The notes: generated by a model from the sequence alone, not told the origin. Positions 9,278 to 62,371 are shown, numbered from the stretch's first letter. The stretch is DNA of 64,000 nucleotides from Dehalococcoidia bacterium (GCA_011191985.1 DUEU01000002.1:11574-75573); one strand, 5' to 3'. Program-made: numbers and translations.

Positions 9278-9278
9278 A

Positions 9279-12925: not shown

Positions 12926-13025
12926 CCGGGCATTTCTATAACGGCGAATAGGTTATTACCAGAGAAGACCTGTTAATATTGGTCTGGTGACGTGTATAAT
13001 TAGTCACAGAAGGAAGCAAAAAGGG

Positions 13026-13070
13026 AGCCGGTTATTATCGTATGTTCGCATACTAACCGGCTTTATAATT
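13026..13070 (+). terminator. Hairpin plus T-rich tail between the SBP and permease genes (partial terminator/attenuator)
   Basis: agccggtta (13026-13034) pairs with taaccggct (13054-13062). An inner stem pairs gtatg with catac around a ttcg loop. The structure is followed by ttataatt. Confidence 0.5.
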
Positions 13071-13231
13071 GGTGGGCATTTATCGGGTTTAATGAATTAT
13101 ATGTGGATTATTAAAATATCATAGACAAGAGTATGCCTAGGCGGCACCTAGGTTTGATGAGAGCAGGCGGACTGTGCTTCTTAACTAGGAAAATGGCGGT
13201 AGGTCCTCAATTGTATTGATAGAGAAGTAAG

Positions 13232-14092
13232 TTGGATATAAGTACTCTGTTACAAAGCATACTAAACGGATTCTCATCAGCCGGGATTTATATTCTGGTA
13301 GCCTTAGGCCTGACATTGGTTCTGAGCATAATGAATATTGTGCAACTGGCTCACGGTGAAATCTATATGATTGGTGCCTATGGTGTCTATTATATCACTA
13401 CTAGCCTTGGTCTCAATTTCTTCCTGGCTCTGGTCATATCCACGCTGCTTATGGGTGGCCTTGGCATAGTTCTGGAGCGCCTCTGTTTTCGCCCATTACG
13501 CGGACAATTTGATCGTGCCGCGATAGCTTCTATTGGGCTAATATTAATACTACAGAATGTTGTCTTGTCTATCGCCGGTGGTGATCCCCGGTCATATATG
13601 AGTCCTTTTACAGGTGTACTAAAGATTCTAGGCGTTGCAATTTCCTGGGATAGGCTGAGTATTGTACTTTTTGGTTTCGGTCTGGTAGCAGCCCTATTTC
13701 TCTTTATTAGAATGACCAAAACCGGCCAGGCAATGCTCGCTATTTCTCAAGATAGGGATGGCGCTGCTCTGCAGGGGATAAATATCGACCGTATTTCGAT
13801 GGCGGCTATGTTTCTGGGTTGCGCTCTAGCCGCAATAGCTGGAGCTTTGGTCGGTGCTATATTCAGCGTTAGTCCGACCATGGGCGGCTTTGCCTTAATG
13901 AAAGGGATTGCCGTGATAATATTGGGTGGTTTGGGCAGCATTCCCGGTGCCGTTGTTGGCGGCCTGATTATCGGGCTTATTGATGGTATTATGCCAATCC
14001 TGACTACAACGCATATCGCCGGCTTGATTGGATTTGGCGCAATTATTATCATTCTGCTATTTCGCCCGCAGGGAATCTCGGGACATGAATAA
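13232..14092 (+). CDS. livH: Branched-chain amino acid ABC permease (LivH-type)
   Basis: 286 aa, multi-TM, BPD_transp_2-like, operon position. Confidence 0.85.
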   Translation: MDISTLLQSILNGFSSAGIYILVALGLTLVLSIMNIVQLAHGEIYMIGAYGVYYITTSLGLNFFLALVISTLLMGGLGIVLERLCFRPLRGQFDRAAIASIGLILILQNVVLSIAGGDPRSYMSPFTGVLKILGVAISWDRLSIVLFGFGLVAALFLFIRMTKTGQAMLAISQDRDGAALQGINIDRISMAAMFLGCALAAIAGALVGAIFSVSPTMGGFALMKGIAVIILGGLGSIPGAVVGGLIIGLIDGIMPILTTTHIAGLIGFGAIIIILLFRPQGISGHE

Positions 14093-15074
14093 GAGGATTC
14101 TAATCTGGATATTGAGCTACGGTATCCTGACAGTATTTCCGTTTCTTATCCCGCTTTTCATTACCGGGCCGTATGTCACTCACATTCTCATCTTGACGGT
14201 GATGAATATTATCTTAGCCAGCAGCCTGCGTCTAATAAATTTATCAGGACAACTGTCTCTGGCTCATGGCGGTATGATGACTATCGGCGCCTATACATCA
14301 ACCTTATTGGTTGTGAAGTTGGGCCTCTCATCTTGGGTGGCCCTGTTGCTGGCTGGACTTCTTGCCGCTGTTATTGCTGGCCTCGTTGGTTTCCCATTTG
14401 TTAGATTAAAAGGCATCTACTTTGCCATAGTTACTATCTTCTTAACTGCAATGGTAACGCTTATGGCACAGCAGTGGCGAAGTCTAACTAGCGGGAGCTA
14501 TGGGATTTATAATATCCCACGACCAGACCCAATTGTTATTCCCGGAATATTGAATATTACCTTTACCTCCAGCGTAAATTGCTATTACCTGGTACTGGTT
14601 ATCATGCTGGTTTCTCTCATTATGCTTTACGCCATTGAGCATTCCCGTATCGGTCTCACCTTCCGTGGCATTCAGCAGTCAGATTCCCTAGCGGAAAGTG
14701 TTGGTGTGAATACAGCTGGCTTAAAAGTACTCGCTTTTAGCATCGGTTGTTTCTTTGCCGGTATTACCGGCGGCTTCTACAGCCAGTATATTATGGCAAT
14801 TGCCCCCGATACATTTGGTTTTCTCTTTACAGTCTATATCCTGATATATATGACAGTGGGTGGATCGGGAAAGTTTATCGGGCCAATCCTCGGGGCATTC
14901 ATTTTAACCATACTACCCGAGGTTATGCGACCCCTGAAGCAGTTTCAGCCGTTTTTCTTTGCCGGGGTGTTGATGCTGGTAATCTTTCTTATGCCCGAAG
15001 GCATAGTCGGACTGCCAGGACGGTTGAAAACGATAGCGGGCAGGCTTTTTAAGGAGCAGCAAGAGCGTGCTTAA
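14085..15074 (+). CDS. livM: Branched-chain amino acid ABC permease (LivM-type)
   Basis: ATG at 14085 (MNKRILIW) overlaps the livH stop by 8 nt. Multi-TM. The track start at 14028 is an upstream extension. Confidence 0.85.
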   Translation: MNKRILIWILSYGILTVFPFLIPLFITGPYVTHILILTVMNIILASSLRLINLSGQLSLAHGGMMTIGAYTSTLLVVKLGLSSWVALLLAGLLAAVIAGLVGFPFVRLKGIYFAIVTIFLTAMVTLMAQQWRSLTSGSYGIYNIPRPDPIVIPGILNITFTSSVNCYYLVLVIMLVSLIMLYAIEHSRIGLTFRGIQQSDSLAESVGVNTAGLKVLAFSIGCFFAGITGGFYSQYIMAIAPDTFGFLFTVYILIYMTVGGSGKFIGPILGAFILTILPEVMRPLKQFQPFFFAGVLMLVIFLMPEGIVGLPGRLKTIAGRLFKEQQERA

Positions 15075-15831
15075 AATAGAGGGGCTAACAAAGCACTTTG
15101 GCGGCCTGGCAGCGGTCAGCGACCTGGATGTAAGCATCGGACCGGGTGAAACCGTCGGTCTGATTGGACCCAATGGCGCCGGGAAAACAACAGTTTTTAA
15201 CTTGGTAACCGGTTTTCTCCGCCCAACAAAGGGGCGGGTTGTATTTGAAGGTAAGGATATCACCACTAAAAAACCGCATTACTTAGCCGGAAAGGGTATC
15301 GTCCGAACTTTCCAGGCAACCAACATCTTCCCCGACTTTACCGTCCTCAAAAACATTGTATTTGCCCACTATCTAAGGCCTAGGATTAGTTTTTGGGAAA
15401 CAGTGTGTCACACCCAGAGCAGCAGGCGAAAAGAGGCCGAAATCCTGCAGCGTTCTCATAAAATCCTGGAACTGGTCGGTTTGGAACCTGTGGCAGGTAC
15501 CACTGCGGGAACCCTGGCTCACGGATATAAAAGACTGCTCGGCATTGCCATAGCCCTGGCCGCAGAGCCAAAACTACTTTTGCTTGATGAGCCATTTTCG
15601 GGAATGAACGCGGAGGAAGTCGGGACAACAATGCAGCTCATCGATAGATTGGAGCAAAGAGGCCTGACCATCCTACTAATTGAACACAATATGAGAGCCG
15701 CCATGAATCTGTGTCAGAGAATCGTCGTGCTGAATTTCGGCAAGAAGATTGCAGAAGGCTCGCCAGAGGATATTAGAGAGAACAAGGAGGTTATTCAAGC
15801 TTACCTTGGAGCCGGCGAAGTCATTGCTTAA
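15067..15831 (+). CDS. livG: ABC transporter ATP-binding protein (LivG-type)
   Basis: Walker A GPNGAGKTT. Signature-like region YKRLLGIAIALA. Walker B LLLLDEP. Confidence 0.9.
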   Translation: MLKIEGLTKHFGGLAAVSDLDVSIGPGETVGLIGPNGAGKTTVFNLVTGFLRPTKGRVVFEGKDITTKKPHYLAGKGIVRTFQATNIFPDFTVLKNIVFAHYLRPRISFWETVCHTQSSRRKEAEILQRSHKILELVGLEPVAGTTAGTLAHGYKRLLGIAIALAAEPKLLLLDEPFSGMNAEEVGTTMQLIDRLEQRGLTILLIEHNMRAAMNLCQRIVVLNFGKKIAEGSPEDIRENKEVIQAYLGAGEVIA

Positions 15832-16525
15832 ACTGAAAGATGTAACGGTACGCTACGAGACGGCCGAAGCGGTAAGGGGTGTCTCCATAGAGGTACCCGA
15901 AGGGTCTGTCATCAGCGTCATTGGCGCTAATGGGGCCGGCAAGAGCACCATTCTCAAAGCCATATCCGGGCTGGTGCCCTTGTATTCGGGTGAAATTGAG
16001 TTCTCCGGCCAGAAGATAAATCGAATGGCCGTTAACCAAATCGTTGACCTTGGCGTCGTCCAAGTCCCGGAAGGTAGAAGGCTGTTCCCTTACATGAGTG
16101 TAATGGCCAATATCAAGCTGGGTGCTTATTTACGAAGGGATAAGAGAGGCATGATGGCCGATATGGAAGAGGTCTTCCGGCTTTTCCCTCGCCTCAAGGA
16201 GAGAAGCAACCAGAAAGCCGGTAGTCTGAGTGGTGGTGAGCAACAGATGCTGGCCATCGGTCGCGGCTTAATGGCCAGGCCCAAATTGCTTATGATGGAT
16301 GAGCCTTCCCTGGGGCTGGCACCGGTAGTAATCGATCTCCTCGCTGATACCATCAGGACCATTAACCAGAGCGGGATTACTGTTCTGCTGGTAGAGCAAA
16401 ATGCCAGTTTGGTGACCAGGGTCTCTCAGAAGTGCTACGTAATAGAGGTAGGCAGGGTTGTTCTGGAGGGTAATGTCCAGGAGCTTATGGCTGATGATTC
16501 AGTGCGAAGAGCATTTTTAGGATGA
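15824..16525 (+). CDS. livF: ABC transporter ATP-binding protein (LivF-type)
   Basis: Probable TTG start at 15824 (LLKLKDV) overlaps the livG stop by 8 nt. Walker A GANGAGKST, signature LSGGEQQMLAIGRGL, Walker B LLMMDEPS. Confidence 0.9.
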   Translation: MLKLKDVTVRYETAEAVRGVSIEVPEGSVISVIGANGAGKSTILKAISGLVPLYSGEIEFSGQKINRMAVNQIVDLGVVQVPEGRRLFPYMSVMANIKLGAYLRRDKRGMMADMEEVFRLFPRLKERSNQKAGSLSGGEQQMLAIGRGLMARPKLLMMDEPSLGLAPVVIDLLADTIRTINQSGITVLLVEQNASLVTRVSQKCYVIEVGRVVLEGNVQELMADDSVRRAFLG

Positions 16526-22058: not shown

Positions 22059-23264
22059 ATGAAGGCAGTAGTTCTAGCCGCGGGTGAGGGAAAACGGATG
22101 CGTCCCCTCACCGCCACCCGGCCCAAGGAGATGCTCCCTATCGCCAATAAGCCGATACTGGAGCATCTGCTTGCCGAATTCAAAAAGGCCGGCGTAGCTG
22201 AGTTTGTCTTCGTCGTCGGCTATCATGATGAGACTGTGCGCGACTACTTTGGCGACGGCCGGAAGTGGGCAGTCGGTATTGAATACGTCACTCAGCAGGA
22301 GCCGCACGGTACCGCCCATGCCGTGCAGATGGTCGGGGAGCGTATTGACGAAAATTTCCTGCTGGTAAACGGGGACATCATCGTGACGGCGCCTGACATT
22401 GATAAGCTCCTAAGTAAAAAACCACCTGCTTTGTGCCTTATTGAAGCTGAAGATGCTAAGGAGACCGGCGCGGTGCGGGTAAAGGGGAAAAGGGTAACGA
22501 TGATTATGGAGAAGGCCGAAACACCTCCTTCCCCCCTGGTCAACGCCGGGTTGTATTTCCTGGATAAACGCATCTTTGCGGCCATATCAAAGACAGGGGA
22601 ATCAGTGCGGGGTGAATATGAGCTTACCGATGCCCTCCAGCTCTTGATTGATGAAGGCACACCGGTCTCTTATGAACGGCTTGACCACTGGCTCCACGTG
22701 AGCTACCCCTGGGACCTGCTTACCGCTAACGAGACCCTGCTTAGCACCAGTGCTGGTGGCAACCTGGGAGAGGTCGAGGCAGGGGCCACCATAAAGGGGC
22801 CGGTGTCTATCGGGCGGGGCACCACCGTGAGGGCCGGCTCATACATTGTTGGCCCCGTAATCATCGGCGAGAATTGCGAAATAGGTCCCAACTGCTATAT
22901 CCGCCCCAGTACGGCCATAGGGTCTGGCTGTCATATCGGGGCTGCCGTCGAAGTGAAGAATTCCATCATCATGAGAGGCACGAAGTTGCCCCATCATAAC
23001 TATGTGGGCGACAGTATAGTGGGTGAAGACTGCAACTTTGGCGCCGGGGCCAAGATAGCCAACCTGAGGCTGGATAAGGAAGAGATTGCTGTCGCCGGGA
23101 TAGAGACCAAAAGACGGAAGCTGGGCGCCGTCATCGGTGATAAGGTGGAAATTGGCATTAATGTCTCCATCGACGTTGGTAGCCTGATTGGTGACCACTC
23201 GTTCATTGGGCCGGGCGAGGTGGTAAATGGTATAATATTACCGAATTCACGGATTTTTGGGTAG
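22059..23264 (+). CDS. Bifunctional sugar-1-phosphate nucleotidyltransferase / LbH acetyltransferase (archaeal-type GlmU-like)
   Basis: N-terminal VLAAGEGKRMRPLT (NTP_transferase). C-terminal hexapeptide-repeat region. 401 aa. Confidence 0.85.
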   Translation: MKAVVLAAGEGKRMRPLTATRPKEMLPIANKPILEHLLAEFKKAGVAEFVFVVGYHDETVRDYFGDGRKWAVGIEYVTQQEPHGTAHAVQMVGERIDENFLLVNGDIIVTAPDIDKLLSKKPPALCLIEAEDAKETGAVRVKGKRVTMIMEKAETPPSPLVNAGLYFLDKRIFAAISKTGESVRGEYELTDALQLLIDEGTPVSYERLDHWLHVSYPWDLLTANETLLSTSAGGNLGEVEAGATIKGPVSIGRGTTVRAGSYIVGPVIIGENCEIGPNCYIRPSTAIGSGCHIGAAVEVKNSIIMRGTKLPHHNYVGDSIVGEDCNFGAGAKIANLRLDKEEIAVAGIETKRRKLGAVIGDKVEIGINVSIDVGSLIGDHSFIGPGEVVNGIILPNSRIFG

Positions 23265-23269
23265 CGAAT

Positions 23270-25051
23270 TTGTGCGGCATTGTGGGTTACATCGGCGAAA
23301 GAGAAGCCCTGCCGGTACTCATCAGTTCCCTAAAGCGGTTAGAGTATCGGGGCTATGATTCCTGTGGGCTCGCCCTTCTAGAAGACGAGATAGCAGTTTT
23401 CAAGGGTAGGGGCAGGATAGAAAAGCTTCAGCAGAACCTGCCGCCATCGCCGGCCAGGATAGGCATTGGTCACACCCGCTGGGCAACGCACGGGAAACCA
23501 TCAAAGGAAAATGCCCATCCTCATCTTGCCTGCAATGGCCGCATTGCCGTGGTTCACAACGGTGTGATTACCAACTTCCAGAAACTCAAGGAAAGGCTGC
23601 TTGCTGAAGGGCATACTTTCACCTCCGAAACGGATACCGAGGTCATCGCTCATGTTATAGAGAGCTACTATCGGGGTGACCTGCTGGACGCCGTGGCCAG
23701 GGCGCTGAAAGAAATCAGCGGGTCCTATGCTATTGCCGTGATTAGCCCGGGATACGATGGGATAATAGTAGCCAGAAATGAAATCCCCTTGTTGATCGGC
23801 GTAGGGGAGGGGGAATTCATCGTGGCCTCCGATGTTGCCGGGATTCTGGAACAAACGCGGCGGGTGATATATCTTGAGGATGGTGATATTGGCTCTATAT
23901 CCAGGGGAGCGGTGAGGATTTTTAACAACGGGCTGCCAGCCGAGCGAAGGGAGCAGCAGGTCCCCTGGAATATAGAAGAGGCACAAAGGGGCGGCTATAA
24001 GCATTTCATGCTCAAGGAGATTCATGAGCAGCCAGAGATGATTGACGAAATGGTAAAGCGCTATATCAGTGCCACGGGAGTAAAGTTTGAGCCGGGATTA
24101 GCCGGGGGTACGGACTTCACCGATATCCTGCTCCTTGCCTGTGGCACATCCTACTATGCTGCTCTGGCTGGTGAGCATATCCTGAAAAAACTGGGCCAGA
24201 TTCCGGTGCACGCGGCGCTTTCCTCCGAGTTTAACTACTCTGACACTATTCTGCGCAAGACACTGGCTATAGCCATCACCCAGTCCGGTGAGACTGCGGA
24301 CACCATTAAGGCATTGAGAGAAGCCAAGAAAAGAGGCTGCCCCTCCCTGGCCATAACCAATGTTATCGGGAGCAGTATAACCAGAGTAGCTGATGCCACG
24401 TTTTATCTTATGGCCGGACCGGAAATCTCGGTGGCCGCTACCAAGAGTTTCACTGCCCAGCTCATTGCCCTCTATCTCCTGGCATTATCTCTGGGAAAGA
24501 TAGACCCTGCTTTCCAGAAAAAGCTGGCTGATGAGTTGAGAGGACTTCCCCAGAAGGTAGCTATGGTTTTAACTGAAGAAGAGAAAATCGCCAAAATTGG
24601 CCGATACCTCGCCGTGTGTGACAACGTTTTCTTCATCGGGCGGGGATTAAATCTGGCTATTGCTCTTGAGGGGGCGCTCAAGTTTAAAGAAATCTGTTAT
24701 ATTCATGCCGAAGGTTATCCGGCGGGGGAACTTTTACATGGCCCGTTGGCCCTTCTCAATCCCATGATGCCGGTGATAGCCATCGTAGCTCCGGATGGCA
24801 CTCACGATATGACCCTCACCAACATAAAAGAGATAAAGGCGCGTGGCGCACCGGTGATTGCCCTCGCTCCAGAGGACGACAGTGAAATCGAGAAATATAC
24901 CGACCGTGTTATTAGAACACCTCAGGTCAACTCTCTTTTCTCACCGGTAACTAATACTATAGTGCTCCAGCTCCTGGCCTACTACACGGCACAGGAGAGG
25001 GGGTCCCCGATAGATATGCCGAGACACTTGGCTAAGACCGTGACTGTATAG
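23270..25051 (+). CDS. glmS: Glutamine--fructose-6-phosphate aminotransferase
   Basis: TTG start followed by CGIVGYIG (N-terminal nucleophile Cys). Two SIS domains (LLLACGTSYYA). C-terminal PRHLAKTVTV. Confidence 0.95.
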   Translation: MCGIVGYIGEREALPVLISSLKRLEYRGYDSCGLALLEDEIAVFKGRGRIEKLQQNLPPSPARIGIGHTRWATHGKPSKENAHPHLACNGRIAVVHNGVITNFQKLKERLLAEGHTFTSETDTEVIAHVIESYYRGDLLDAVARALKEISGSYAIAVISPGYDGIIVARNEIPLLIGVGEGEFIVASDVAGILEQTRRVIYLEDGDIGSISRGAVRIFNNGLPAERREQQVPWNIEEAQRGGYKHFMLKEIHEQPEMIDEMVKRYISATGVKFEPGLAGGTDFTDILLLACGTSYYAALAGEHILKKLGQIPVHAALSSEFNYSDTILRKTLAIAITQSGETADTIKALREAKKRGCPSLAITNVIGSSITRVADATFYLMAGPEISVAATKSFTAQLIALYLLALSLGKIDPAFQKKLADELRGLPQKVAMVLTEEEKIAKIGRYLAVCDNVFFIGRGLNLAIALEGALKFKEICYIHAEGYPAGELLHGPLALLNPMMPVIAIVAPDGTHDMTLTNIKEIKARGAPVIALAPEDDSEIEKYTDRVIRTPQVNSLFSPVTNTIVLQLLAYYTAQERGSPIDMPRHLAKTVTV

Positions 25052-28798: not shown

Positions 28799-28993
28799 AT
28801 GCCAATTTACGAATACAAGTGTCGAAACTGTAATGAGAAATTTGAAGTTCGTCGCAATCTCCAAGATGAAGAAAAAGAGGTAAAGTGCCCCCGATGTGAG
28901 AGCCGCGACACGCAAAGGGTGTTTTCTCTCTTCAGTAGCGGTTCCTCAGGCAATTTATGCCCGCCAGCACCGTCACGTTTTGGCTTCGGCTGA
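28799..28993 (+). CDS. FmdB-family zinc-ribbon protein
   Basis: MPIYEYKCRNCNEKFEV...CPRCES, i.e. two CxxC pairs and the typical YEY.C start. Confidence 0.7.
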   Translation: MPIYEYKCRNCNEKFEVRRNLQDEEKEVKCPRCESRDTQRVFSLFSSGSSGNLCPPAPSRFGFG

Positions 28994-29398
28994 GGTTGAT
29001 CTGCAGGGAGTGGTTCACTTCAAATAACCCTTCTATTTTTAAATTTGGCAGCAGACAGGTTACCGCTACCTCGGTCCTCTTTTCGTCTCGAAGGCGAGTA
29101 GGTACAACCACAGGCAGTAAAGAACTCACGGGCATTAATACCGAGCACTCGCGTATCATAACTACGATAGTAATCGCTATCAACGCTTTCGGGCAGGGGA
29201 ATATTAACAATATAGTCTTTTCCCGCGAGTGAGATGTTATACTGTCTTGTCGATAAGCAGTCCTGGCTTTATGCCTTTATGGGGGCAGATTAACTTACCG
29301 AATGCTATAATAGGTGTTATAAGTTAATAAATAGTGGTAATAGCTTTTGCGTATGTTAGCATGTTAGTATAAGGACACCCGAATTAATGGGGTGACGT

Positions 29399-31612
29399 AT
29401 GCCAGAAGTAATCAAGAAATCGCACTGTCACTGGTGCCATAACGGGTGTTCTGTTCAGGTTGTAGTCAGGGATGGCCGCCTGATTAAAATTGAAGAGAAC
29501 AAGGATCATCCTGGAGCTGAGATGATCCGTCGTACCGTAGCGTCCTGTTCTAAGGCGCGTAATGCTGCCGAGTTCTACCATCACCCTGGCCGGCTAAACT
29601 ATCCACTCAAGAGGGTTGGCGAACGTGGCGAGGGTAAATGGCAGGAGATCGCCTGGGAGCAGGCGCTCGATGAGATAGCTGGCAGACTTAAGGAGATAAA
29701 GGAGAAATATGGGGCTGAGGCAGTGGGCACCAGCTCTGGCACTGGAAGGACCTTCGATGAATACCGAATACGCTTTTTTAATCTGTTTGGTAGCCCAAAC
29801 AATTGGGGTCAGGGACATATTTGCTATGGCCCGTCCAATATGACAGCCCTGGCAACTACAGGCTATTCTGGTATGGGGTCGTCACCAACTCCAGACACCA
29901 AGTGCTGCCTAATGATTGGTAATAACCCCGAGCAGTCCTGGAGAAGAACCTGGTTTCACATACTGGATTTTAAGAAAAGGGGGGGCAAGCTTGTTGTTGT
30001 TGACCCCAGACGCACCAGGCCAGCAGAGTTTGCTGATATATGGTTACAGCTTAGACCGGGAACAGATGCTGCCCTTCTGCTGGGTATGATAAATACCATA
30101 ATTAGTGAGGGACTCTATGATAAGGAATTCGTCGAAAAATATTGTTACGGCTTCGACAAGCTGGCTGAGCGGGCTCGGGAATATCCGCTGGATAAAGTGG
30201 CCGGGATAACCCGGCTACCCGAGGAGGACATCAGACAGGCAGCGATAATGTACGCAGCGAATAAACCGGCGGTAATCTTGGCCATGGAAGGGCTGGAACA
30301 CAGCCCCAACTGTATAGAGGCCATTCATTGCCGGTACATCCTGCCCGCTATCACGGGCAATTTTAATATCAAGGGTGGTGAGAAGCTTCGTGCCGTCAAG
30401 AGCAAATTGAGGACGGAATATGAGATTTCGCTCCATGACATGGTGCCTTCTGAGCAAAAGGCCAAGCAGATTGGCTCTGACCGCTTCAAGCTCGAAGCCT
30501 TCCCCGGATATGACCTTTGTATGAATTACAGTAAGGCAAAGGTAGCTCGGGACCACGTTTGTTTTGCTCATGCTGGCATGTGCTACGAGGCGATGATTAC
30601 TGGCCAGCCCTACCCTATAAAGGCAGTGATAACCCTTTCCAGTAATCCCTTGGTAACCCAGGCCAATACCAAAAAAGTATATAAGGCATTAAAGAACCTT
30701 GACCTATACGTGGTTATGGATTACTGGATGACGCCATGTGCTGAAATCGCCGACTATGTTCTGCCTGGCGCCAATTGGCTGGAGAGGGAAGACCTGTTCA
30801 ACGTTTGGGATGCCTTTCCTAACATTGACGTTGGTGAAGTAGCCATGCCTCCCAGAGTAGCCGGTAAACATGACCGTAGGACTGACTATGATTTGTGGCG
30901 CGGTCTTGGTTTGAGACTGGGACAGGAGGAATACTGGCCGTGGCAGAACCTGGGGGAAGCTCTAAACTGGCGACTGGAACCCTTAGGCCCTACTATTTCC
31001 GATATTATCACCAAATATGGTAGTTATATTAAACCGTCTCAGGAGGAGTACGGCGGGTTGGAGTTTGGGACCCCTACAGGAAAATGTGAGCTATATTCCA
31101 CAGTATTTGAAAAGCTCGGTTATGATCCACTACCACGCTTTTACGAGGCGGCGGAGAGTCCGGTGAGTAATCCTGAACTGGCCAAGGAATACCCTTTTAT
31201 CCTGATTACGGGGGGTAGACATCTTCCCTTCTTTCACTCAGAGCATCGTCAAGTAGACTCCCTACGCCTAGAACATCCTGACCCCGTAGTCCAGGTTAAT
31301 CCAGGGACAGCCGCCGAGCTGGGTATTGAAAATGATGACTGGATTTGGATAGAGAGCCCTCGAGGACGAGTCCGGCAAAAATGCCGCTATTTTGATGGTA
31401 TCGCGCCAGATGTCGTTCACGCCCAACACGGCTGGTGGTTCCCTGAGTTGCCCGGCGAGGAACCATGGCTACATGGTGTCTGGGAATCGAACATCAATGT
31501 CCTCACTTGCGATGATGCGGACTACTGCAATCCTATCAATGGCGGATGGCCGCTCAGGACCCTGATGTGCAAGATTTATAAGTGCCATGTCTACGAGGAA
31601 TCTAAAAAGTAG
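29399..31612 (+). CDS. Cytoplasmic molybdopterin/tungstopterin (bis-MGD, DMSO-reductase superfamily) enzyme, acetylene-hydratase-like subgroup suspected
   Basis: N-terminal FeS motif CHWCHNGC...C. No Tat signal. Candidate metal-ligand Cys in GHICYGP. LVVVDPRRT and LRPGTDAALLLGMIN are typical of the family. Confidence 0.85.
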   Translation: MPEVIKKSHCHWCHNGCSVQVVVRDGRLIKIEENKDHPGAEMIRRTVASCSKARNAAEFYHHPGRLNYPLKRVGERGEGKWQEIAWEQALDEIAGRLKEIKEKYGAEAVGTSSGTGRTFDEYRIRFFNLFGSPNNWGQGHICYGPSNMTALATTGYSGMGSSPTPDTKCCLMIGNNPEQSWRRTWFHILDFKKRGGKLVVVDPRRTRPAEFADIWLQLRPGTDAALLLGMINTIISEGLYDKEFVEKYCYGFDKLAERAREYPLDKVAGITRLPEEDIRQAAIMYAANKPAVILAMEGLEHSPNCIEAIHCRYILPAITGNFNIKGGEKLRAVKSKLRTEYEISLHDMVPSEQKAKQIGSDRFKLEAFPGYDLCMNYSKAKVARDHVCFAHAGMCYEAMITGQPYPIKAVITLSSNPLVTQANTKKVYKALKNLDLYVVMDYWMTPCAEIADYVLPGANWLEREDLFNVWDAFPNIDVGEVAMPPRVAGKHDRRTDYDLWRGLGLRLGQEEYWPWQNLGEALNWRLEPLGPTISDIITKYGSYIKPSQEEYGGLEFGTPTGKCELYSTVFEKLGYDPLPRFYEAAESPVSNPELAKEYPFILITGGRHLPFFHSEHRQVDSLRLEHPDPVVQVNPGTAAELGIENDDWIWIESPRGRVRQKCRYFDGIAPDVVHAQHGWWFPELPGEEPWLHGVWESNINVLTCDDADYCNPINGGWPLRTLMCKIYKCHVYEESKK

Positions 31613-31633
31613 CCGGAAAGGTAAGGTGATACC

Positions 31634-33895
31634 GTGTCTAAAGAGTATCGACATATAGGAAAAGCAACACCGCGGAAGGACGCCCGGGAAATTGTCACGG
31701 GAAAGGCACAGTATATTGATGATATAACGGTACCCAATATGCTCTATGGCAAGATTCTGGGTAGTCCTTATCCCCATGCCAGAATCAAGCATATCGATAC
31801 CGGCAGAGCCGAGGCTTATCCCGGCGTTAAAGCCGTGCTCACCTACCAGGATGCCCCCGACTGGAGGATAGGCACGCCCCGCCACAGACGTTGTCTTGAC
31901 AGCACGTTACATTTCGTGGGCGACGCGGTCGCTTTAGTAGCTGCCGAAACCGCGGAGATCGCCGAGGACGCTCTGGGACTGATAGAAGTGGAATACGAAC
32001 AGCTGCCGGCCGTCTATGACGTCGAGGAAGCCCTGAAACCTGATTCGCCTCAAGTATGTGCTGAATTCCCGGGTAACCTTATCCCACCCGGCGCCTACGG
32101 ACTCGGCCCTAAAGCCCTGCAACAAGTTGTTATGGGTGATGTAGAGCAGGGATTCAAAGAGGCTGACTTTATCGTGGAAGGAACGTGTCTTTATGATAAC
32201 ATCCCCAACCCCCTGCCTCCGGAACCTCCCGGAGTAATAGCTTTCTGGGAAGGGCCCGAAAAAATAACCATCTGGATGGCATCACAGTCCGTACCTATAG
32301 GCAAGACCTTCCTACTGCCGGCACTAGGGCTTATCGATATACGAATTATCGGCACTCATTGCGGTGGTAGCTACGGAACCAAGAACGCCAATCAAATTCT
32401 TGTTCTCTACGCTGCGGCACTGGCAAAGGCAACGGGTAGGCCGGTCAAAGTATATTACACAAAGGAAGAGCACTTTAATACCTTCACGCTACGATTAGGG
32501 TCCCGTATCCGAGGTAAGGTAGGGATGAAAAAAGACGGAACGGTGACAGCACTGGAAGGTGAGTGGTTCGTTGATACCGGCGCCGCTTCAGAATCATCAC
32601 CCCAGCAGGTTGCCGTCGGTTGTGGTGAAGTACAGATCGTGGTCAGGTGTCCGAACTGGAACCTGAAACCCAGCCTTGTATGTACCAACCGGAACCCTTC
32701 AGGGTGCGTTAGGGGTTTTGGTGGACAGGAGCTCAAGAGTGCCTTCCTGCCGGTCTTGGGAATGGCTATGGAAAAGGCTGATATCGATCCGTTAGAGTTT
32801 TTCAAGAAAAACTATGTTAAGGCTGGTGATGGGTTCTATTGGCGGAACGGTGTCTGGGCAGAATTCAGAGGACCGGACTATTCAAAAGCAATGGAGAAAG
32901 GTGCTGAGGTCTTTGGGTGGAAAGATAAGTGGCAGGGGTGGGGCAAACCGACGGCCGTTAATGGCACAAAGAAGGTAGGGGTCGGGGTTGGGGTACATGG
33001 TAACGCCGATGTCGGTGAAGATGAGTCTGAGGCATATGTACGATTAACCCCCGACGGCAGGGCCGTGATACATGCCTGCGTATCCGAGTCTGGGCCGGGG
33101 CAGAGGAGCAGTGTCTGCAAAATGGCCGCCGAAGTTTTGAATTTGCCCCTGGAAAGTGTCAACATAACACCCCCGGATACATCGTTAAACCCGTTTGATT
33201 TCGGGCTTGTTGGCTCGCGGGGAACTTACATTTTAGGGGCAGCGGTCATAGCCGCCGCCGAGGACGCCAAGCACAAGCTGTTTGAGCTTGCTGCCCCTGT
33301 ACTTGGGGCAAAGCCTGAAGCTTTGGAGACTAAAGATGGGCAGATATACGTAGCGAACAACCCGAGTAAAAAGATACCGTGGCGGCGAGCAACAGGCCAC
33401 CAGCGCACGTGTACCGGTCAGGGGCGCTGTGTGGAGGACTTTACTTTACCTAATATGATGATGATATTTACCGAAGTTGAAGTAGATACCGAGACAGGGA
33501 AAACGGAATTACTACGCATCGTTGCCACTACCGACTGCGGTCAAATTATAGACCCACTTGTTCTTCAGGGTCAGCTTCACGGCGCTCTAGGGGCGGCGGG
33601 AACAGATACCGCTGTTTTTGAGATATCAGTTTTGGACAAGAACATAGGACGTTTACTGAACGGCAACATGATAGACTACAAATGGCGCACATTTGCTGAC
33701 CTGCCCGAATTTAGGACCGTAATTCTGGAGACACCTTTTCCGAGCCACCGCTTTCATGCCATAGGAGTTGGCGAGGTAGCCACCGCACCGGGACCATCCG
33801 CCGTACTCATGGCAGTATACAATGCAATCGGTACCAGAATAATGTCTTATCCCGTGACTCCGGATAAAATCCTTAAGGCTTTGGGTAGAATATAA
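31634..33895 (+). CDS. Xanthine dehydrogenase / aldehyde oxidase / CoxL-family molybdopterin-binding large subunit
   Basis: GTG start 21 nt after the upstream stop. Hammerhead region GKAQYIDDI..LYGKILGSPYPHARI. Also GGSYGTK and the C-terminal AIGVGEVATAP. Confidence 0.85.
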   Translation: MSKEYRHIGKATPRKDAREIVTGKAQYIDDITVPNMLYGKILGSPYPHARIKHIDTGRAEAYPGVKAVLTYQDAPDWRIGTPRHRRCLDSTLHFVGDAVALVAAETAEIAEDALGLIEVEYEQLPAVYDVEEALKPDSPQVCAEFPGNLIPPGAYGLGPKALQQVVMGDVEQGFKEADFIVEGTCLYDNIPNPLPPEPPGVIAFWEGPEKITIWMASQSVPIGKTFLLPALGLIDIRIIGTHCGGSYGTKNANQILVLYAAALAKATGRPVKVYYTKEEHFNTFTLRLGSRIRGKVGMKKDGTVTALEGEWFVDTGAASESSPQQVAVGCGEVQIVVRCPNWNLKPSLVCTNRNPSGCVRGFGGQELKSAFLPVLGMAMEKADIDPLEFFKKNYVKAGDGFYWRNGVWAEFRGPDYSKAMEKGAEVFGWKDKWQGWGKPTAVNGTKKVGVGVGVHGNADVGEDESEAYVRLTPDGRAVIHACVSESGPGQRSSVCKMAAEVLNLPLESVNITPPDTSLNPFDFGLVGSRGTYILGAAVIAAAEDAKHKLFELAAPVLGAKPEALETKDGQIYVANNPSKKIPWRRATGHQRTCTGQGRCVEDFTLPNMMMIFTEVEVDTETGKTELLRIVATTDCGQIIDPLVLQGQLHGALGAAGTDTAVFEISVLDKNIGRLLNGNMIDYKWRTFADLPEFRTVILETPFPSHRFHAIGVGEVATAPGPSAVLMAVYNAIGTRIMSYPVTPDKILKALGRI

Positions 33896-34122: not shown

Positions 34123-35409
34123 CTAAGGGTTTATTGGTTTATCAGCTATCCGTATAGCTCGGCTGGCGGGAGGGGCAGTTATAAAGCTAACCATACCAGC
34201 AAAGGCCACACCGGCTGTGGCAAACCAGGCACCCTGATAGCTGCCATAGACATCATATATCCAGCCAGATAGAGGCGGTCCTATCAGGCTGCCGACATAG
34301 GCTACGCCCGTAGCCAGACCAAGGATAGTACCCAACCTGACCCGGCCAAAATATTCCCTTATCAAGGCCACTGACATAGGGACCTGGGACCCGTAACCGA
34401 TGCCGAAGAGAGCGACAAAGACCATGAGCAGCCATATCCCGGCAACATCAACATAGTTATAGATGATTATACCCATGGTAAGCAGGGCCATACCTGTAGC
34501 CGTGACCTGCCTCTTATCAAATATATCTCCGAACCAGCCGGCGCTGAGGCGGCCAACGATAGTCATTAGCGGCAGTGCGCCAGCCACCCAGCCAGAGACT
34601 GTTCGCGGAACACCGATGCTGCTGAGATAGGGCATTACATGGGTCAATACGGCAAGTGCCACTATAAAACTACACACCATGCCGAAGGCGATATGCCAGA
34701 AAACGCGGCTTTTCAAGGCCTGCTTGGCGCTGACATCTACGTCCTCGTATTGCGCCGCTGTCTGGACTTCATCAATGTCTATGGTTTTGCTTACCTCGCC
34801 ATCAGGTAAATAGCCATGCTGCTCCGGCCGGTGCCGCACTATAAGCGCCAGCGGAAAGATAACGGCCCACGCCCCCAGGCCAAAAATTACCATGGCTATC
34901 CGCCAATCATAAGCATCGATAGCCCAAGTTATCAGCGGGACCAGAATTCCCCCGGCAGCGACACCACTCACCACAATACCGGTGGCCAGAGATACCCTTT
35001 TGCGAAACCAGTTCCCCGCCACCGTCATCGGGACAACACCGACACTAACGCTTATGGCAGTGCTTACCAGTATGAAAGAACCGTAGAACATGGCCAGGGA
35101 GCTGGTACGGCTCAGCAGTAATAAGCCGATACCCATGATGGTAGCCCCGGCGAAAATTAGCTTCCTTGGCCCCCAGCGGTCAAGAAGAAAGCCCACCACG
35201 GGGGCCATCAGGCCCGATTCCAGGCCGCGTATTGAAGCCGCAAAGGAGACCAGGGCATAGCTCCAGTGGAACTCCTCTACTATCGGCTCAATAAGCGCCG
35301 TGAAACCGAGATTCACGACTCCGGAACAATAAACCGAAATCAAGAAACAGGCGCCGACAATATACCACCCGTAGAATAACCTTAAGTGAGGTCGCTTTGA
35401 ATCGGTCAT
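34123..35409 (-). CDS. MFS transporter (oxalate/formate antiporter-like)
   Basis: 428 aa, about 12 TM, with MFS loop motifs. Confidence 0.8.
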   Translation of the reverse strand: MTDSKRPHLRLFYGWYIVGACFLISVYCSGVVNLGFTALIEPIVEEFHWSYALVSFAASIRGLESGLMAPVVGFLLDRWGPRKLIFAGATIMGIGLLLLSRTSSLAMFYGSFILVSTAISVSVGVVPMTVAGNWFRKRVSLATGIVVSGVAAGGILVPLITWAIDAYDWRIAMVIFGLGAWAVIFPLALIVRHRPEQHGYLPDGEVSKTIDIDEVQTAAQYEDVDVSAKQALKSRVFWHIAFGMVCSFIVALAVLTHVMPYLSSIGVPRTVSGWVAGALPLMTIVGRLSAGWFGDIFDKRQVTATGMALLTMGIIIYNYVDVAGIWLLMVFVALFGIGYGSQVPMSVALIREYFGRVRLGTILGLATGVAYVGSLIGPPLSGWIYDVYGSYQGAWFATAGVAFAGMVSFITAPPASRAIRIADKPINP

Positions 35410-35497: not shown

Positions 35498-36598
35498 TCA
35501 GATAGGTATCGGAGTGGTAAGCGGAAACTCGTCTCTTTCGATCATTTCTATGAGAAGGTTTTCAATAGCTTCATCCGACGAACATTTATAGAAAGGCGGT
35601 GAATCCATAAAGCCAGCCGGGCCTCTTAGCGTCTTAAACTGGTCTTCGTACTTGCTCAGCTTCTTTACTGTGACATCACCCTCTTTAATTGCTTCGACAG
35701 CGACCTCAGCGGCATAACGTCCGGAGACAATGGCCGGCAATATTCCTATCAAAAGGGCGGCACTTCCGGCAAGGATCAGGCCGTCCTCCACGACCTTGTT
35801 TAGTCCTATTCCCAGGTCCGAGGGATGACTCCAGCCTGCCATTCGGACTGGAACGGCGTCTCTTAGTTTTCTAGAAATCACATAGTTACCAGATTTAACC
35901 TGCTCAAACTCGGCCAGCGACATAAAATCTATTGTGCAGGATACATCATCACGAGGGCAAATACCGGTCCAACCTCTTTTGATGAAAGCTCCAGTATGCC
36001 ATTCAAGGACATCAGGCTCGATATCTCTCACCCTGGCTAGCTCAAGTGTAATGCCACCTATAAATGTTTGCTCAGCCCTTATTAGCCCCTGCCACCTGGG
36101 GGTACCTTTCTGCGCGGCATGGATACCGTCGGCACCTATCACTATTTTCCCGTACAAAGTTGGCGTGGTGTTTGAGTTAGTGGTAACGCCGATAACCCTC
36201 CCATTTTGCTTTAGCAAACCAGTAACCCGTGTATTAAGCCTGAGGTCAGCACCGGCGTTGACTGCCTGCCGGGCCAATTCCCGGTCAAACTCGTCTCTTC
36301 GGACCAGATAGTCAGCCGTTCCTGCTACCGATAGTTCTTGTACTACTTTTCCACTCGGAGCGAAGACGCGCTCCAAACGATATTCTGTTAATACCACGCT
36401 TTGATGCATTTCTCTGATAATATCTTCGTAAAGTTCTGGTCTTGTCGTCCTATGAAGTAGTCCCCAGCAATGCTCAGGGACCCCAACTATGGTATGCTCT
36501 TCTAAAAGGATAGCTTTGAGCCCTCGTTCGGCCACTACCTTGGCCGCTGCCGACCCGGCCGGCCCCGCGCCGACAACGATTACGTCATATTCGTTCAT
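35498..36598 (-). CDS. FAD-dependent oxidoreductase, geranylgeranyl-reductase/FixC-like family
   Basis: N-terminal YDVIVVGAGPAGSAAA dinucleotide motif. 366 aa. Confidence 0.8.
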   Translation of the reverse strand: MNEYDVIVVGAGPAGSAAAKVVAERGLKAILLEEHTIVGVPEHCWGLLHRTTRPELYEDIIREMHQSVVLTEYRLERVFAPSGKVVQELSVAGTADYLVRRDEFDRELARQAVNAGADLRLNTRVTGLLKQNGRVIGVTTNSNTTPTLYGKIVIGADGIHAAQKGTPRWQGLIRAEQTFIGGITLELARVRDIEPDVLEWHTGAFIKRGWTGICPRDDVSCTIDFMSLAEFEQVKSGNYVISRKLRDAVPVRMAGWSHPSDLGIGLNKVVEDGLILAGSAALLIGILPAIVSGRYAAEVAVEAIKEGDVTVKKLSKYEDQFKTLRGPAGFMDSPPFYKCSSDEAIENLLIEMIERDEFPLTTPIPI

Positions 36599-41063: not shown

Positions 41064-42830
41064 GTGTCTGGAGTTGATCCAATTACCTTTGCTGTCGTTC
41101 GAAATAAGTTAATCTCAATTGCTAATGGTATGCTAGAGACCGCGTTCGGCTGTGGAGTGACTACTTTTATGTATGAAATCAGGGACTGTTCCTTTGGGAT
41201 TCTTGATGCCGAATGTGGTATTGTCGCGCAATCTGATGGAATTCCTCTTTTTGCCGGTAGCCTAGGTCCGGCTACCAAGAATTGTGTTGACGTTATTGGC
41301 AAGGAAAACCTGGAACCCGGCGACATAGTAATATCGACGGCGCCCGATGTTACCGGCAACCACACTTCTGATGCCATACTGTTTGCCCCTATTTTCTATC
41401 AAGGCCGGCTGTTTGGCTACGCCGCCACCAAGGCACACTGGATAGACCTCGGTGCCAAGAGCACCTACCCGGCCGATGCCACCAATATCTATGAAGAGGG
41501 CCTGCGCATCCCCCCGGTCAAGTACTACCGGAAAGGTAAGCTGCAATCAGCCATCTGGGAGATTATTAAGTGGAATTCAAGGGCCCCTGACCAGGTATGG
41601 GGAGACCAGCAGGCCCAGATTGCCGGCTGTCATTTTGCCGAAAGGCAGGTAACAGAGCTGCTGGACAAATACGGGGTCGAAACCATAGAGGCCTGTATCG
41701 GGGAGATATACGACCACAGTGAGCGCATCACCCGGCTGGCCATTGAAGCCATGCCTGATGGCACGTGGTCGGCCGAAGACTATATAGATGACAACGGCAT
41801 TGATCTAGATAAACTGGTGCCAATTAAAGTAACAGTAACGATTGAAGGAAGCGATATCACCATAGACCTCTCCGGCTCAGCCCCGGAGCAACGGGGGCCA
41901 ATGAACGGTTTATGGGTCACCACCCTATCCGCCGCCAGAATGGCGGTTAAGGCATTGACCACTCCGGAGCTACCGGCAAACGAAGGCTCCAATAGACCGG
42001 TTAAAGTAATAGCGCCCAAAGGCAGTGTGTATAATGCTGGCCCCACAGTACCATCTTTCCTGTGTGCTGACGTAGCCTCGGCGATGCTGGAACTGATCAA
42101 CAAAGCATTAAGTCGCGTGCTGCCAGAAAAAGTTCCCGCGTGTTCCGGAGGTCATCCAGGGGGGAGTGGCTGTTTCGGGGTAGATCCCAAAACAGGGAGG
42201 TACTGGGGAACTATCATACCGGCTATAATTGGACAGGGAGCTGACTTTTTTGCCGACGGTGAAAATTACCTCATGTATCATGCTTGTGGCGGCGGCCAGA
42301 ATATCCCTACCGAGATATTAGAATCAACATTTCCTCTATTTGTCGAAAAGAACGAACTGGTTCAGGATAGCGGCGGGGCTGGAAAGCATAGAGGAGGTCT
42401 GGCTTCCAGGATTCAAATTAGGCTTCTCGCCCCCGCCACCTATTATGGCTATATAGAAAAGGCGAAAACTCCGCATTGGGGTATTGATGGTGGCAAAGAA
42501 GGCCTTAGAAATTACGCATTAATTAAGTCAAAAGACAGAGGAGAATTCAAGGTGCTGAAGACTTCGGGCGTGCCACTGGCCGAAGGTGATAGAGTGATTA
42601 TCACGGCTGGTTGTGGAGGAGGATACGGGGACCCGTTGGAAAGAGACCCTGAAGCGGTGCACTGGGATGTTATCAACGGCTATGTATCGGTTGAGCATGC
42701 CAGGCAGGATTACGGGGTGGTCATTGACCCACAGACACTTGAGGTTGATTTGAAAGCTACGAAAAGATTAAGGGGCGTTTACAATGGTACCTCAGTAATT
42801 ACGCGTGTACCCCTGCCCGGTTCTGATTGA
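41064..42830 (+). CDS. Hydantoinase B / oxoprolinase / acetone-carboxylase-alpha family protein
   Basis: GTG start. DPITFAVVRNKLISIANGM is typical of the Hydantoinase_B N-terminus. 588 aa. No HyuA-type partner in the window. Confidence 0.85.
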   Translation: MSGVDPITFAVVRNKLISIANGMLETAFGCGVTTFMYEIRDCSFGILDAECGIVAQSDGIPLFAGSLGPATKNCVDVIGKENLEPGDIVISTAPDVTGNHTSDAILFAPIFYQGRLFGYAATKAHWIDLGAKSTYPADATNIYEEGLRIPPVKYYRKGKLQSAIWEIIKWNSRAPDQVWGDQQAQIAGCHFAERQVTELLDKYGVETIEACIGEIYDHSERITRLAIEAMPDGTWSAEDYIDDNGIDLDKLVPIKVTVTIEGSDITIDLSGSAPEQRGPMNGLWVTTLSAARMAVKALTTPELPANEGSNRPVKVIAPKGSVYNAGPTVPSFLCADVASAMLELINKALSRVLPEKVPACSGGHPGGSGCFGVDPKTGRYWGTIIPAIIGQGADFFADGENYLMYHACGGGQNIPTEILESTFPLFVEKNELVQDSGGAGKHRGGLASRIQIRLLAPATYYGYIEKAKTPHWGIDGGKEGLRNYALIKSKDRGEFKVLKTSGVPLAEGDRVIITAGCGGGYGDPLERDPEAVHWDVINGYVSVEHARQDYGVVIDPQTLEVDLKATKRLRGVYNGTSVITRVPLPGSD

Positions 42831-52458: not shown

Positions 52459-52485
52459 CTCATTTTCACCTCCCATAGCAGCAAA

Positions 52486-54252: not shown

Positions 54253-54263
54253 CTCAGTCCTCG

Positions 54264-55010: not shown

Positions 55011-55432
55011 CACATCAACCTCTTTAGTTATTTCTACGCTCACATGAGTTTGGTTAATTATAAATCTATTGAGATGAGATAACAATAAGTTAAACCAGAG
55101 AAGCGGGAGGAATAGTAGCGATATTACAATAATAGGGTACAAAACGCTGATACACCATTCACTATACTAGAGTAATTGGAAGACCAACGTAGAACCATAT
55201 CGCCCCTAATTTTACCGGCAGGAAAACAGGGTATATAGCGGCTGGTAAATAAATAATCTTGGAGAGGCAACTAACAGCGTAGTCTTAGACTTACATGGAA
55301 CGTGCGCTGAACCACTAGGTGCACCTTTTTCGTCATAAAGAGAATACAGAGAAGAGTTACCAATAGAAAGGGAACCATGAAAATCTATGCATTCCATATG
55401 CCTGTTTTAAAGGCCGGTATAGGCGACAATAC

Positions 55433-62342: not shown

Positions 62343-62371
62343 TGCATACAACCTCCTCCTATCTTGTTCAA

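Follow-up and report, generated by a model that had tools for sequence, protein, structure and literature searches.

Two adjacent genes in a 64,000-nucleotide (nt) stretch of DNA from a Dehalococcoidia bacterium (GCA_011191985.1 DUEU01000002.1:11574-75573; the whole stretch is called here the window) encode enzymes with molybdenum or tungsten cofactors. The product of the first gene resembles acetylene hydratase (AH) and is referred to below as the AH-like protein. The second gene encodes a large subunit of the xanthine oxidase/xanthine dehydrogenase (XO/XDH) family. With the naming used for the XO family, the small [2Fe-2S] subunit is denoted S, the large subunit with the molybdenum-molybdopterin cytosine dinucleotide (Mo-MCD) site L, and the flavin adenine dinucleotide (FAD) subunit F. 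We suggest that the AH-like/L pair is most likely a lineage-specific gene rearrangement and not a new two-step pathway. In particular, we put at about 0.5 the probability that L was relocated behind the AH-like gene in the lineage of the window and borrows S and F from elsewhere in the genome.

The large subunit and its relatives

A preliminary description of the window, made from the sequence alone, assigned the 753-residue product of the second gene to the Mo-binding subunits of the XDH/CoxL type, and the three Pfam domains found in it bear this out (Table 1). The narrower assignment to the aldehyde oxidoreductases does not hold. Against NCBIfam, L scores 362 bits with XdhA, 347 bits with the alpha subunit of 4-hydroxybenzoyl-coenzyme A (CoA) reductase (4-HBCR; TIGR03194, cutoff 995), 255 bits with PaoC and 248 bits with the pterin aldehyde oxidoreductase. 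All family scores are far below cutoff, and L is an equivalog of no named enzyme. Against the PDB it matches CoxL with 236 bits and 4-HBCR alpha (1rm6_A) with 222 bits. Glu714 of the GVGE motif is invariant in 118 of 118 family members, and every position of the GVGE, CGGSYG and RGFGGQE motifs is conserved in at least 97 of them. L is 66-78% identical to the L subunits of complete S-L-F operons. By sequence it belongs to the 4-HBCR/PaoABC-like S-L-F family, of which it does not have the operon architecture.

The relatives of L were taken from the contigs of its closest homologs and from 80 further loci found in a metagenome scan. A Fer2_2 small subunit lies directly upstream, ending at most 400 nt from the start of L, in 62 of the 63 loci with an upstream flank, and F is present in all 35 loci with both flanks. 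Such adjacent partners in the relatives count against the interpretation given in the preliminary description. The sole exception to the upstream S is locus L092, which comes from the window's own lineage (a strain about 95% identical) and, like the window, shows neither S nor F. In the 64 kb of the window, tblastn with the subunits of three homologous operons gives nothing for S or F (best E 0.097), the flanking intergenic regions hold no remnants of S or F pseudogenes (tblastn, E≤10), and no Fer2, Fer2_2, FAD_binding_5 or CO_deh_flav_C domain is found by Pfam in any of the large window open reading frames (ORFs). The earlier observation that no [2Fe-2S] or FAD subunit is encoded nearby thus extends to the whole window.

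The junction between the two genes is genuine. Locus L092, a 2.4-kb contig from a different Joint Genome Institute (JGI) sample, spans it with 94.9% nt identity to window positions 30284-32691, and the presence of the same junction in an independent assembly means that the arrangement is not an assembly chimera. The two ORFs are 21 nt apart, as previously described. In a terminator scan the matches occur at background frequency and no site falls inside the 21-nt spacer. This, together with the short same-strand spacing, implies co-transcription, and the AH-like gene and L probably form a two-gene co-transcribed unit.

Both genes are under purifying selection. Comparison of the window with L092 gives a ratio of nonsynonymous to synonymous substitution rates (dN/dS) of 0.076 in the AH-like gene and, over 1020 nt, of 0.090 in L. 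At the 195 columns with 97% or more conservation in 117 relatives the window L shows no deviation, and at conservation thresholds of 90, 80 and 70% its deviation lies at the 33rd-50th percentile of the family. L shows no decay, nor the altered constraint that would be expected from a lost or repurposed S-binding surface.

In the relatives F is usually about 790 residues long and of the CoxM/HcrB type, with a Cys loop of the 4-HBCR/PaoB type and an inserted NfnB/GltD-like module of about 470 residues, for which two [4Fe-4S] clusters, FAD and NAD(P)H binding are predicted from sequence. The best matches are PRK12771 (439 bits) and, in the PDB, NfnA 9n5u (322 bits). Examples of this F are found at L084 12278-14659, L090 12278-14656 and L087 12279-14648, with about 45 further loci (L086-L172); it is widespread in metagenome-assembled genomes (MAGs) of Dehalococcoidia, Desulfobacterota and archaea. 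No published characterisation of this architecture was found in the literature searched. A reductase of the 4-HBCR type, NAD(P)H-linked or electron-bifurcating, is one possible role of the S-L-F enzyme. In three loci tandem S-L pairs are combined with a single F, in the order F-S-L-S-L or S-L-S-L-F (L117 2107-10199, L120 1410-9429, L143 4483-11573). With one F for two S-L pairs, the paralogous catalytic pairs appear to share one flavin/NfnB subunit.

Identity and active site of the AH-like protein

The first enzyme of the pair, 737 residues long, has the N-terminal cluster motif and the cytoplasmic character that had been noticed. Its N-terminus, MPEVIKKSHCHWCHNGC, carries no twin-arginine (Tat) signal, and C10, C13, C17 and C50 align to AH Cys9, Cys12, Cys16 and Cys46. 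The resemblance to AH, to which the preliminary description had pointed, is confirmed: the stretches LYDKEFVE..C.GF and DPRRT..AE.ADIWL.LR.GTDAAL align to AH, with which the protein shares about 41% identity. In a phmmer search of PDB sequences the best match is AH (2e7z; 503 bits, E 9e-150, end to end), and the next is the polysulfide reductase PsrA at 229 bits. The AlphaFold (AF2) model (predicted local distance difference test, pLDDT, 84; predicted template modelling score, pTM, 0.89) gives a Foldseek template modelling (TM) score of 0.90 to 2e7z; other structures of the dimethyl sulfoxide (DMSO)-reductase family score 0.70-0.81. With AH the best match by both sequence and fold, the protein lies outside the formate- and thiosulfate-reductase clades. 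It is far below every equivalog cutoff of NCBIfam, and a look-up of its exact sequence gives no record.

The Cys that had been proposed as metal ligand, Cys142, aligns to the AH tungsten ligand Cys141. It is invariant (210/210) in a MAFFT family alignment made of AH (rebuilt from a printed alignment), the window protein, 88 genomic and 120 metagenomic relatives. AH Lys48 is also kept. We suggest that the AH-like protein is a cytoplasmic, stand-alone enzyme with one [4Fe-4S] cluster and a predicted Cys-ligated Mo/W-bis-molybdopterin guanine dinucleotide (bis-MGD) site.

The surroundings of this site differ from those in AH. Asp13 is specific to the AH subfamily; the D13A variant is inactive and D13E is active (2025 review, PMC12096430). 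In the window protein His14 takes this position, as had been pointed out, and in the family alignment Asp occurs there only in AH itself and His in 151 of the 210 sequences. The nearest homolog (P0001, 75-76% identity) has Met, which means that the position is not fixed even within the closest subclade. The hydrophobic substrate ring of AH is said to have been described by Seiffert et al. in 2007 as Ile14, Ile113, Ile142, Trp179, Trp293 and Trp472. Of these, Trp179 and Trp472 are named in PMC12096430. The equivalents in the AH-like protein are N15, G116, Y143, R182 (MAFFT) or W181 (phmmer), A295 and W470, so that at most two of the six residues are kept; from member to member of the clade these positions are hypervariable. 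Throughout the AH-like family Arg117 is invariant.

An exhaustive HMMER search of 1.84 billion cluster representatives returned 2194 clusters at E≤1e-30, of which the best 150 were inspected. Directly after the second cluster Cys, 29 of these have His, 12 Tyr, 8 Gly, 4 Asp and 2 Glu. The AH signature CxxCDI[MN]C is present in two of the 150, both of them AH's own best matches. The window protein fits the His-type clade: many metagenomic members are 55-75% identical to it, and it shares with the clade the CxWCHNxC-type motif, a length of about 735-745 residues and the lack of a Tat signal. Members of the clade have been called ‘AH-like’ (PMC3971608, PMC10100899).

With Asp13 absent, the hydrophobic ring mostly replaced and a position within a pocket-variable clade, the candidate role of a true acetylene hydratase is rejected, and the ‘hydratase-type’ label of the preliminary description is not established. 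On sequence grounds we place the protein in a large clade related to AH, within which the pocket has diversified. Its different active-site shell (His14, Arg117 and a polar/aromatic pocket) points away from acetylene as the substrate; the likeliest candidates are organic acids, (hydroxy)aromatic ones among them, and their CoA esters.

Genomic neighbourhoods and the link between the two families

The neighbourhoods of AH-like genes were compared in 83 loci: 80 came from a set in which a single genome represents each GTDB species, and the rest were the contigs that encode the two proteins closest to that of the window. The recurrent neighbours are UbiD (de)carboxylases of the hydroxyarylic-acid/phenylphosphate type, PaaK-like aryl-CoA ligases, tripartite ATP-independent periplasmic (TRAP) or Liv-type transporters, MaoC-like hydratases, CoA transferases and tungsten enzymes of the aldehyde:ferredoxin oxidoreductase (AOR) family. 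The catechol dehydroxylases of gut Coriobacteriia (Dadh, Hcdh and Cadh) form a clade sister to AH, with homologs in anaerobic aromatic degraders (PMC7028382). This kinship and the neighbouring genes point to (hydroxy)aromatic or organic-acid substrates. In the subclade nearest to the window protein the neighbours vary and no partner gene is conserved; a 4x[4Fe-4S] protein is encoded directly downstream only in a subclade 42-47% identical to the window protein. It is common for AH-like genes to stand in tandem or in clusters with paralogs 38-50% identical to them (L001 7709-12205; also L006, L008, L011, L028 and L050), and AOR-family genes lie near AH-like or S-L-F genes in L001, L028, L067, L083, L087 and L122.

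Conservation of the pair across genomes, which the preliminary description had named as a check, is not seen. The strict AH-like/L pair is found only in the window and in the 95%-identical strain L092, and in none of the 83 AH-like loci. An XDH-family large subunit lies within 10 kb in one of the 83; it is 31% identical, on the opposite strand and of a different XDH family. The closest AH-like homologs, P0001 and P0002 (66% identity), have no XDH neighbour.

A looser association is present. AH-like genes are located within 5 kb of S-L-F operons in L084/L085, L096, L122 and L126/L127. In L084/L085 the S-L-F operon is convergent with a group of HbpS-like, AH-like (57% identical to that of the window), DUF2284, MaoC and CoA-transferase genes. 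In L096 (4-8569) an AH-like gene, also 57% identical to the window's, is followed after a 17-nt gap by an AOR gene and then by S, L and F, all co-directional; three pterin-enzyme families thus stand in one apparent operon. The AH-like genes of L122 and L126/L127 are 40-42% identical to that of the window. Just downstream of the S-L-F operon of L091, about 100 codons (6546-6821) are 43% identical to the AH-like N-terminus and no full-length gene is present, and this stretch may be a decayed AH-like gene.

A possible source of the partner subunits

An S-L-F operon is present at locus L090, with an L that shares 73% identity with the window L. Positions 14699-15937 of L090 and window positions 56846-58084 share 1239 bp of 97.7% nt identity with sharp boundaries and unrelated flanks. 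The shared stretch is exactly one MaoC/FAS1_DH-like hydratase gene (406 residues), which in L090 directly follows the S-L-F operon. The other genes common to both are 56-73% identical only. The tetranucleotide correlation of L090 with the window (r 0.917) is the highest among the loci of at least 8 kb, and the window-internal range is 0.78-0.94. We suggest that L090 may come from the same genome as the window or from a sister genome. The near-identical MaoC-like gene could reflect a recent transfer, an intragenomic duplication or the origin of both contigs in one population.

Proposed origin of the pair

We propose the following scheme. In the lineage of the window the L gene would have moved directly behind the AH-like gene, which would then stand in the position normally held by S. 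L would assemble with S and F of a paralogous S-L-F operon elsewhere in the genome, these subunits being supplied in trans. The AH-like enzyme and L would both serve the anaerobic catabolism of (hydroxy)aromatic acids. The operons in which two S-L pairs accompany a single F provide a precedent for the sharing of subunits.

Several points weigh against this scheme. For the organism of the window no S or F gene is present within the available 64 kb, and among the 63 loci only one L lacks an S of its own. The operons that share F keep one S for each L, and thus give no direct precedent for a borrowed S. The co-localisation of the two families is modest and only suggestive, with about five independent lineages among about 60 XDH-anchored loci and one of 83 AH-anchored loci. 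MAGs of Dehalococcoidia and Desulfobacterota hold several copies of both families, so that the adjacency of the two genes may be due to chance. The link of L090 to the genome of the window is built on composition and one near-identical gene.

We consider it unlikely, though not negligibly so, that the juxtaposition is coincidental, with both genes functional in unrelated pathways and L, served by S and F in trans, placed behind the AH-like gene by a rearrangement. The rarity of XDH-family L genes near AH-like genes, their absence beside P0001 and P0002, the highly variable neighbourhoods of the AH-like subclade and the multi-copy character of both families would all be expected from coincidence. 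However, the spacing of the pair and the absence of a terminator-like site in the spacer imply co-transcription, the arrangement is kept under purifying selection in two strains, and in L084 and L096 AH-like genes of the same subclade adjoin S-L-F operons whose L is of the same family.

The model of the preliminary description, in which a W-dependent hydratase forms a carbonyl from an unsaturated substrate and L, as an enzyme of the aldehyde oxidoreductase type, then oxidises the product, finds little support and we regard it as improbable. Asp13, which is essential in AH (PMC12096430), and the acetylene ring are absent from the first enzyme. The scores of L against the aldehyde oxidoreductases (PaoC and the pterin enzyme) are no better than those against XdhA and 4-HBCR alpha, and the F of its family, of the 4-HBCR/PaoB type with a fused NfnB module, speaks for NAD(P)H-linked reduction no less than for oxidation. 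Moreover, L alone, without FeS partners, cannot hand on electrons. These points are set against the facts that AH is the closest characterised relative of the first enzyme, that this enzyme is stand-alone and without an electron-transfer partner, like the non-redox AH, and that a Wtp tungstate transporter is encoded within the window. The AH-like gene of L096, followed after 17 nt by a gene for an AOR-family enzyme, and the recurrence of such genes near other AH-like genes are the only echo of a hydration-then-oxidation sequence.

We think it quite improbable that L is a relic, a catalytic subunit stranded away from its partners and no longer part of an active enzyme. The missing upstream S, exceptional among the 63 loci, and the absence of partner genes from the 64 kb are what a relic would show. 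Yet the dN/dS of L is low relative to a strain that shares the rearrangement, none of the 195 most conserved columns deviates and the others are at the family median, the frame is intact, and a Shine-Dalgarno-like sequence precedes the start.

The position of the AH-like gene, which is that of S in 62 of 63 related operons, its subunit-like spacing of 21 nt and the constraint on both genes would also be explained if the AH-like protein replaced the [2Fe-2S] subunit in a heterodimer, its [4Fe-4S] cluster wiring the bis-MGD site to the Mo-MCD of L. We judge this very unlikely. The constraint on L is unaltered at all conservation levels, which argues against a replaced S interface, the arrangement is limited to one species-level lineage, and the nearest AH-like relatives function without L. 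To our knowledge no XO-family enzyme without [2Fe-2S] clusters exists, and we know of no described molybdoenzyme architecture with two pterin sites, bis-MGD and Mo-MCD. The heterodimer would be self-contained and redox-neutral overall, for example with dehydroxylation at one site and coupled hydroxylation at the other, and would have no FAD or NAD(P)H module. In its favour, the catechol dehydroxylases are sister to AH, and phenols are dehydroxylated both by DMSO-reductase-type and by XO-type enzymes (PMC7028382, PMC12771579).

Surroundings of the pair in the window

The features of the locus and its flanks are listed in Table 1.

Table 1. Features of the AH-like/L locus and of its flanks; positions are counted from the first letter of the window (ABC, ATP-binding cassette; MFS, major facilitator superfamily).
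Feature	Position	Strand	Remarks
GlcD-HdrD-like fusion, 1029 residues	25644-28733	+	FAD_binding_4/FAD-oxidase_C, 4Fe-4S dicluster, two CCG domains
FmdB-type zinc-ribbon gene	28799-28993	+	64 residues; above cutoff with Zn_ribbon_8 (57.9 bits) and with TIGR02605 (64.7 bits)
AT-rich intergenic region upstream of the AH-like gene, 405 nt	28994-29398	+	probable promoter region, inferred only
AH-like bis-MGD/[4Fe-4S] protein	29399-31612	+	737 residues; Molybdop_Fe4S4, Molybdopterin, Molydop_binding (Pfam)
Cluster motif C10-x2-C13-H14-x2-C17 of the AH-like protein, codons	29426-29449	+	alignment to AH
His14 codon of the AH-like protein (AH Asp13 position)	29438-29440	+	
Fourth cluster Cys50 codon of the AH-like protein	29546-29548	+	
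Cys142 codon of the AH-like protein, predicted Mo/W ligand (AH Cys141)	29822-29824	+	alignment
Spacer between the AH-like and L genes, 21 nt, CCGGAAAGGTAAGGTGATACC	31613-31633	+	Shine-Dalgarno-like AGGTGAT, purine-rich
XO/XDH-family Mo-MCD large subunit (L)	31634-33895	+	753 residues, GTG start; Ald_Xan_dh_C, MoCoBD_1, MoCoBD_2 (Pfam)
Glu714 codon of L, GVGE motif (XO-family catalytic Glu)	33773-33775	+	aligns to the Glu of ‘GIGE’ in CoxL 8uem
MFS transporter, monocarboxylate/oxalate-formate-like	34123-35409	-	convergent with the pair
WtpA, WtpC (TOBE domain) and WtpB (partial), tungstate ABC transporter	61359-63993	-	27 kb from the pair

The FmdB zinc-ribbon gene before the pair and the Wtp locus are present, as had been described; a specific link of either to the pair is not supported. 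The FmdB gene lies 66 nt 3' of the gene of the 1029-residue FAD/FeS/CCG protein, and this closeness, together with the 405-nt gap, makes the AH-like/L pair look like a two-gene unit of its own, to which the FmdB gene probably does not belong. As a conserved partner FmdB is rejected, since none of the 83 AH-like loci has a homolog of it. WtpA scores 376 bits in NCBIfam (cutoff 355), WtpC 427 (cutoff 440) and the partial WtpB 276. Situated 27 kb away on the opposite strand, the locus indicates a capacity for tungstate uptake only, and nothing specific to the pair. A promoter scan upstream of the AH-like gene gives background level only, and an Rfam scan of the whole 64-kb window finds no RNA family and no riboswitch.

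The 1029-residue protein is not a CoxM-type partner. As a conserved neighbour it was rejected: tblastn gives only CCG/HdrD-like domains, at 25-29% identity and in five distant loci.

Other parts of the window hold several systems of their own. Two genes of the HGD-D family stand beside a BcrAD/BadFG-type activase ATPase (8093-11479), followed by a Liv-type ABC transporter (11729-16525). The top NCBIfam match of the HGD-D genes, below cutoff, is the ‘double-cubane-cluster-containing anaerobic reductase’, and by sequence we assign this group as an ATP-dependent reductase or dehydratase module. The S-L-F operon of L090 is likewise flanked by four HGD-D genes. Three KaiC-family genes lie in a row at 50662-55142 (minus strand), two of which (604 and 588 residues) have a C-terminal V4R domain, which binds small molecules, and a DUF7504 region; L090 holds a 66%-identical paralog of these KaiC/V4R genes. 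A full-length serpin is encoded at 5252-6529 (plus strand; Pfam 399 bits), with a 70%-identical serpin on L087/L088, and a chagasin-type (I42) cysteine-protease inhibitor at 56125-56541 (minus strand), both in what seems to be a genome of the Chloroflexota.

A Hydantoinase_B/oxoprolinase-type gene (41064-42830, plus strand; caprolactamase beta-like at 315 bits, which is below cutoff) follows that of an SBP_bac_5 binding protein. It has no adjacent Hydantoinase_A, which makes it another partnerless catalytic subunit in the window. In L084 the Hydantoinase B and A subunit genes adjoin. An archaeal-type bifunctional GlmU (TIGR03992, 524 bits; within 22059-25051) and a geranylgeranyl-reductase-family gene (35498-36598) co-occur in the window with bacterial two-component systems of the OmpR and LuxR types. 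An archaeal origin, considered because of the GlmU, geranylgeranyl-reductase-like and KaiC/V4R genes, is rejected: the named best matches of the window GlmS all come from Dehalococcoidia or Chloroflexota, and OmpR- and LuxR-type regulators are present. The window thus probably derives from a deep lineage of the Chloroflexota, and an identity of only about 60% at GlmS hints that this lineage is poorly sampled. A GlmS from ENA (P0241) is 99% identical and comes from the same population, which also occurs in the JGI samples 3300056904 and 3300056889.

Comparison with known systems

Should the proposed scheme be right, the locus would serve mainly as a caution and for cataloguing. Genes called ‘AH-like’ have been taken in surveys as a sign of widespread acetylenotrophy, and most of them do not have the residues that AH needs. 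The clade is large (more than 2000 clusters at 50% identity) and its substrates are probably aromatic or organic acids. The L family is a widespread group of XO-family enzymes with an NfnB-fused F, and a candidate 4-HBCR-type reductase in Dehalococcoidia, Desulfobacterota and Bathyarchaeia. An L that is under selection without an FeS subunit of its own suggests that catalytic modules may be swappable onto shared electron-transfer scaffolds. If the AH-like protein and L did form a complex, this would be a new molybdoenzyme architecture.

The AH of Pelobacter (Syntrophotalea) acetylenicus (EC 4.2.1.112, 2e7z) is similar to the window protein in size, fold, cluster Cys residues, Cys ligand, Lys48 and the missing Tat signal, and neither has an adjacent electron-transfer subunit. 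The window protein differs by His in place of Asp13, by N15, G116, Y143 and A295 in the ring and by the added invariant Arg117. The sequences with the true AH signature form a small subclade separate from it. Whereas the context of AH is acetylene fermentation, that of the AH-like genes is the catabolism of aromatic compounds and CoA esters.

Among the catechol dehydroxylases, those of the Gordonibacter type (Dodh/Cldh) are Tat-less, smaller and soluble, and are encoded beside MFS transporters and a small 4Fe-4S protein (PMC7028382). The window protein is also Tat-less and has an MFS gene nearby, in its case convergent; this likeness is by description only. Unlike in the catechol dehydroxylases, an adjacent electron-shuttling 4Fe-4S protein, with or without a membrane anchor, is absent in the window and in the closest AH-like subclade, and at 41% identity the window protein is very close to AH. 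No catechol dehydroxylase structure is among the PDB sequence matches listed (60 of 63) or among the fold matches.

The pyrogallol-phloroglucinol transhydroxylase of Pelobacter acidigallici is a non-redox cytoplasmic enzyme of the DMSO-reductase family with hydroxylated aromatics as substrates. For a redox-neutral role it offers an analogy in concept only: it is neither among the 60 of 63 PDB sequence matches listed nor among the top 50 fold matches, and thus is not a close relative.

L may be compared with 4-HBCR, HcrABC of Thauera aromatica (1rm6/1sb3), to which it is homologous over the full length, with an anaerobic aromatic context in both. The F of the family aligns to HcrB through the region of the [4Fe-4S] loop with the Cys pattern kept; HcrB does not have the NfnB/GltD-like insert. 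However, the window L is far below the HcrABC equivalog cutoff, and S and F are missing from the window. The relatives of L also share the S, L and F logic with E. coli PaoABC, with CoxLMS, with XdhABC and with Ucdh of Enterocloster, which is an XO-family urolithin C dehydroxylase (PMC12771579), and here, too, the window L stands apart as an equivalog of none and without adjacent partners. The VAYRCSFR Cu loop of CoxL is absent from it and replaced by the XDH-type RGFGG motif. With all four systems the window L has in common the three-domain organisation, the catalytic Glu and the GGSYG and RGFGGQE motifs.

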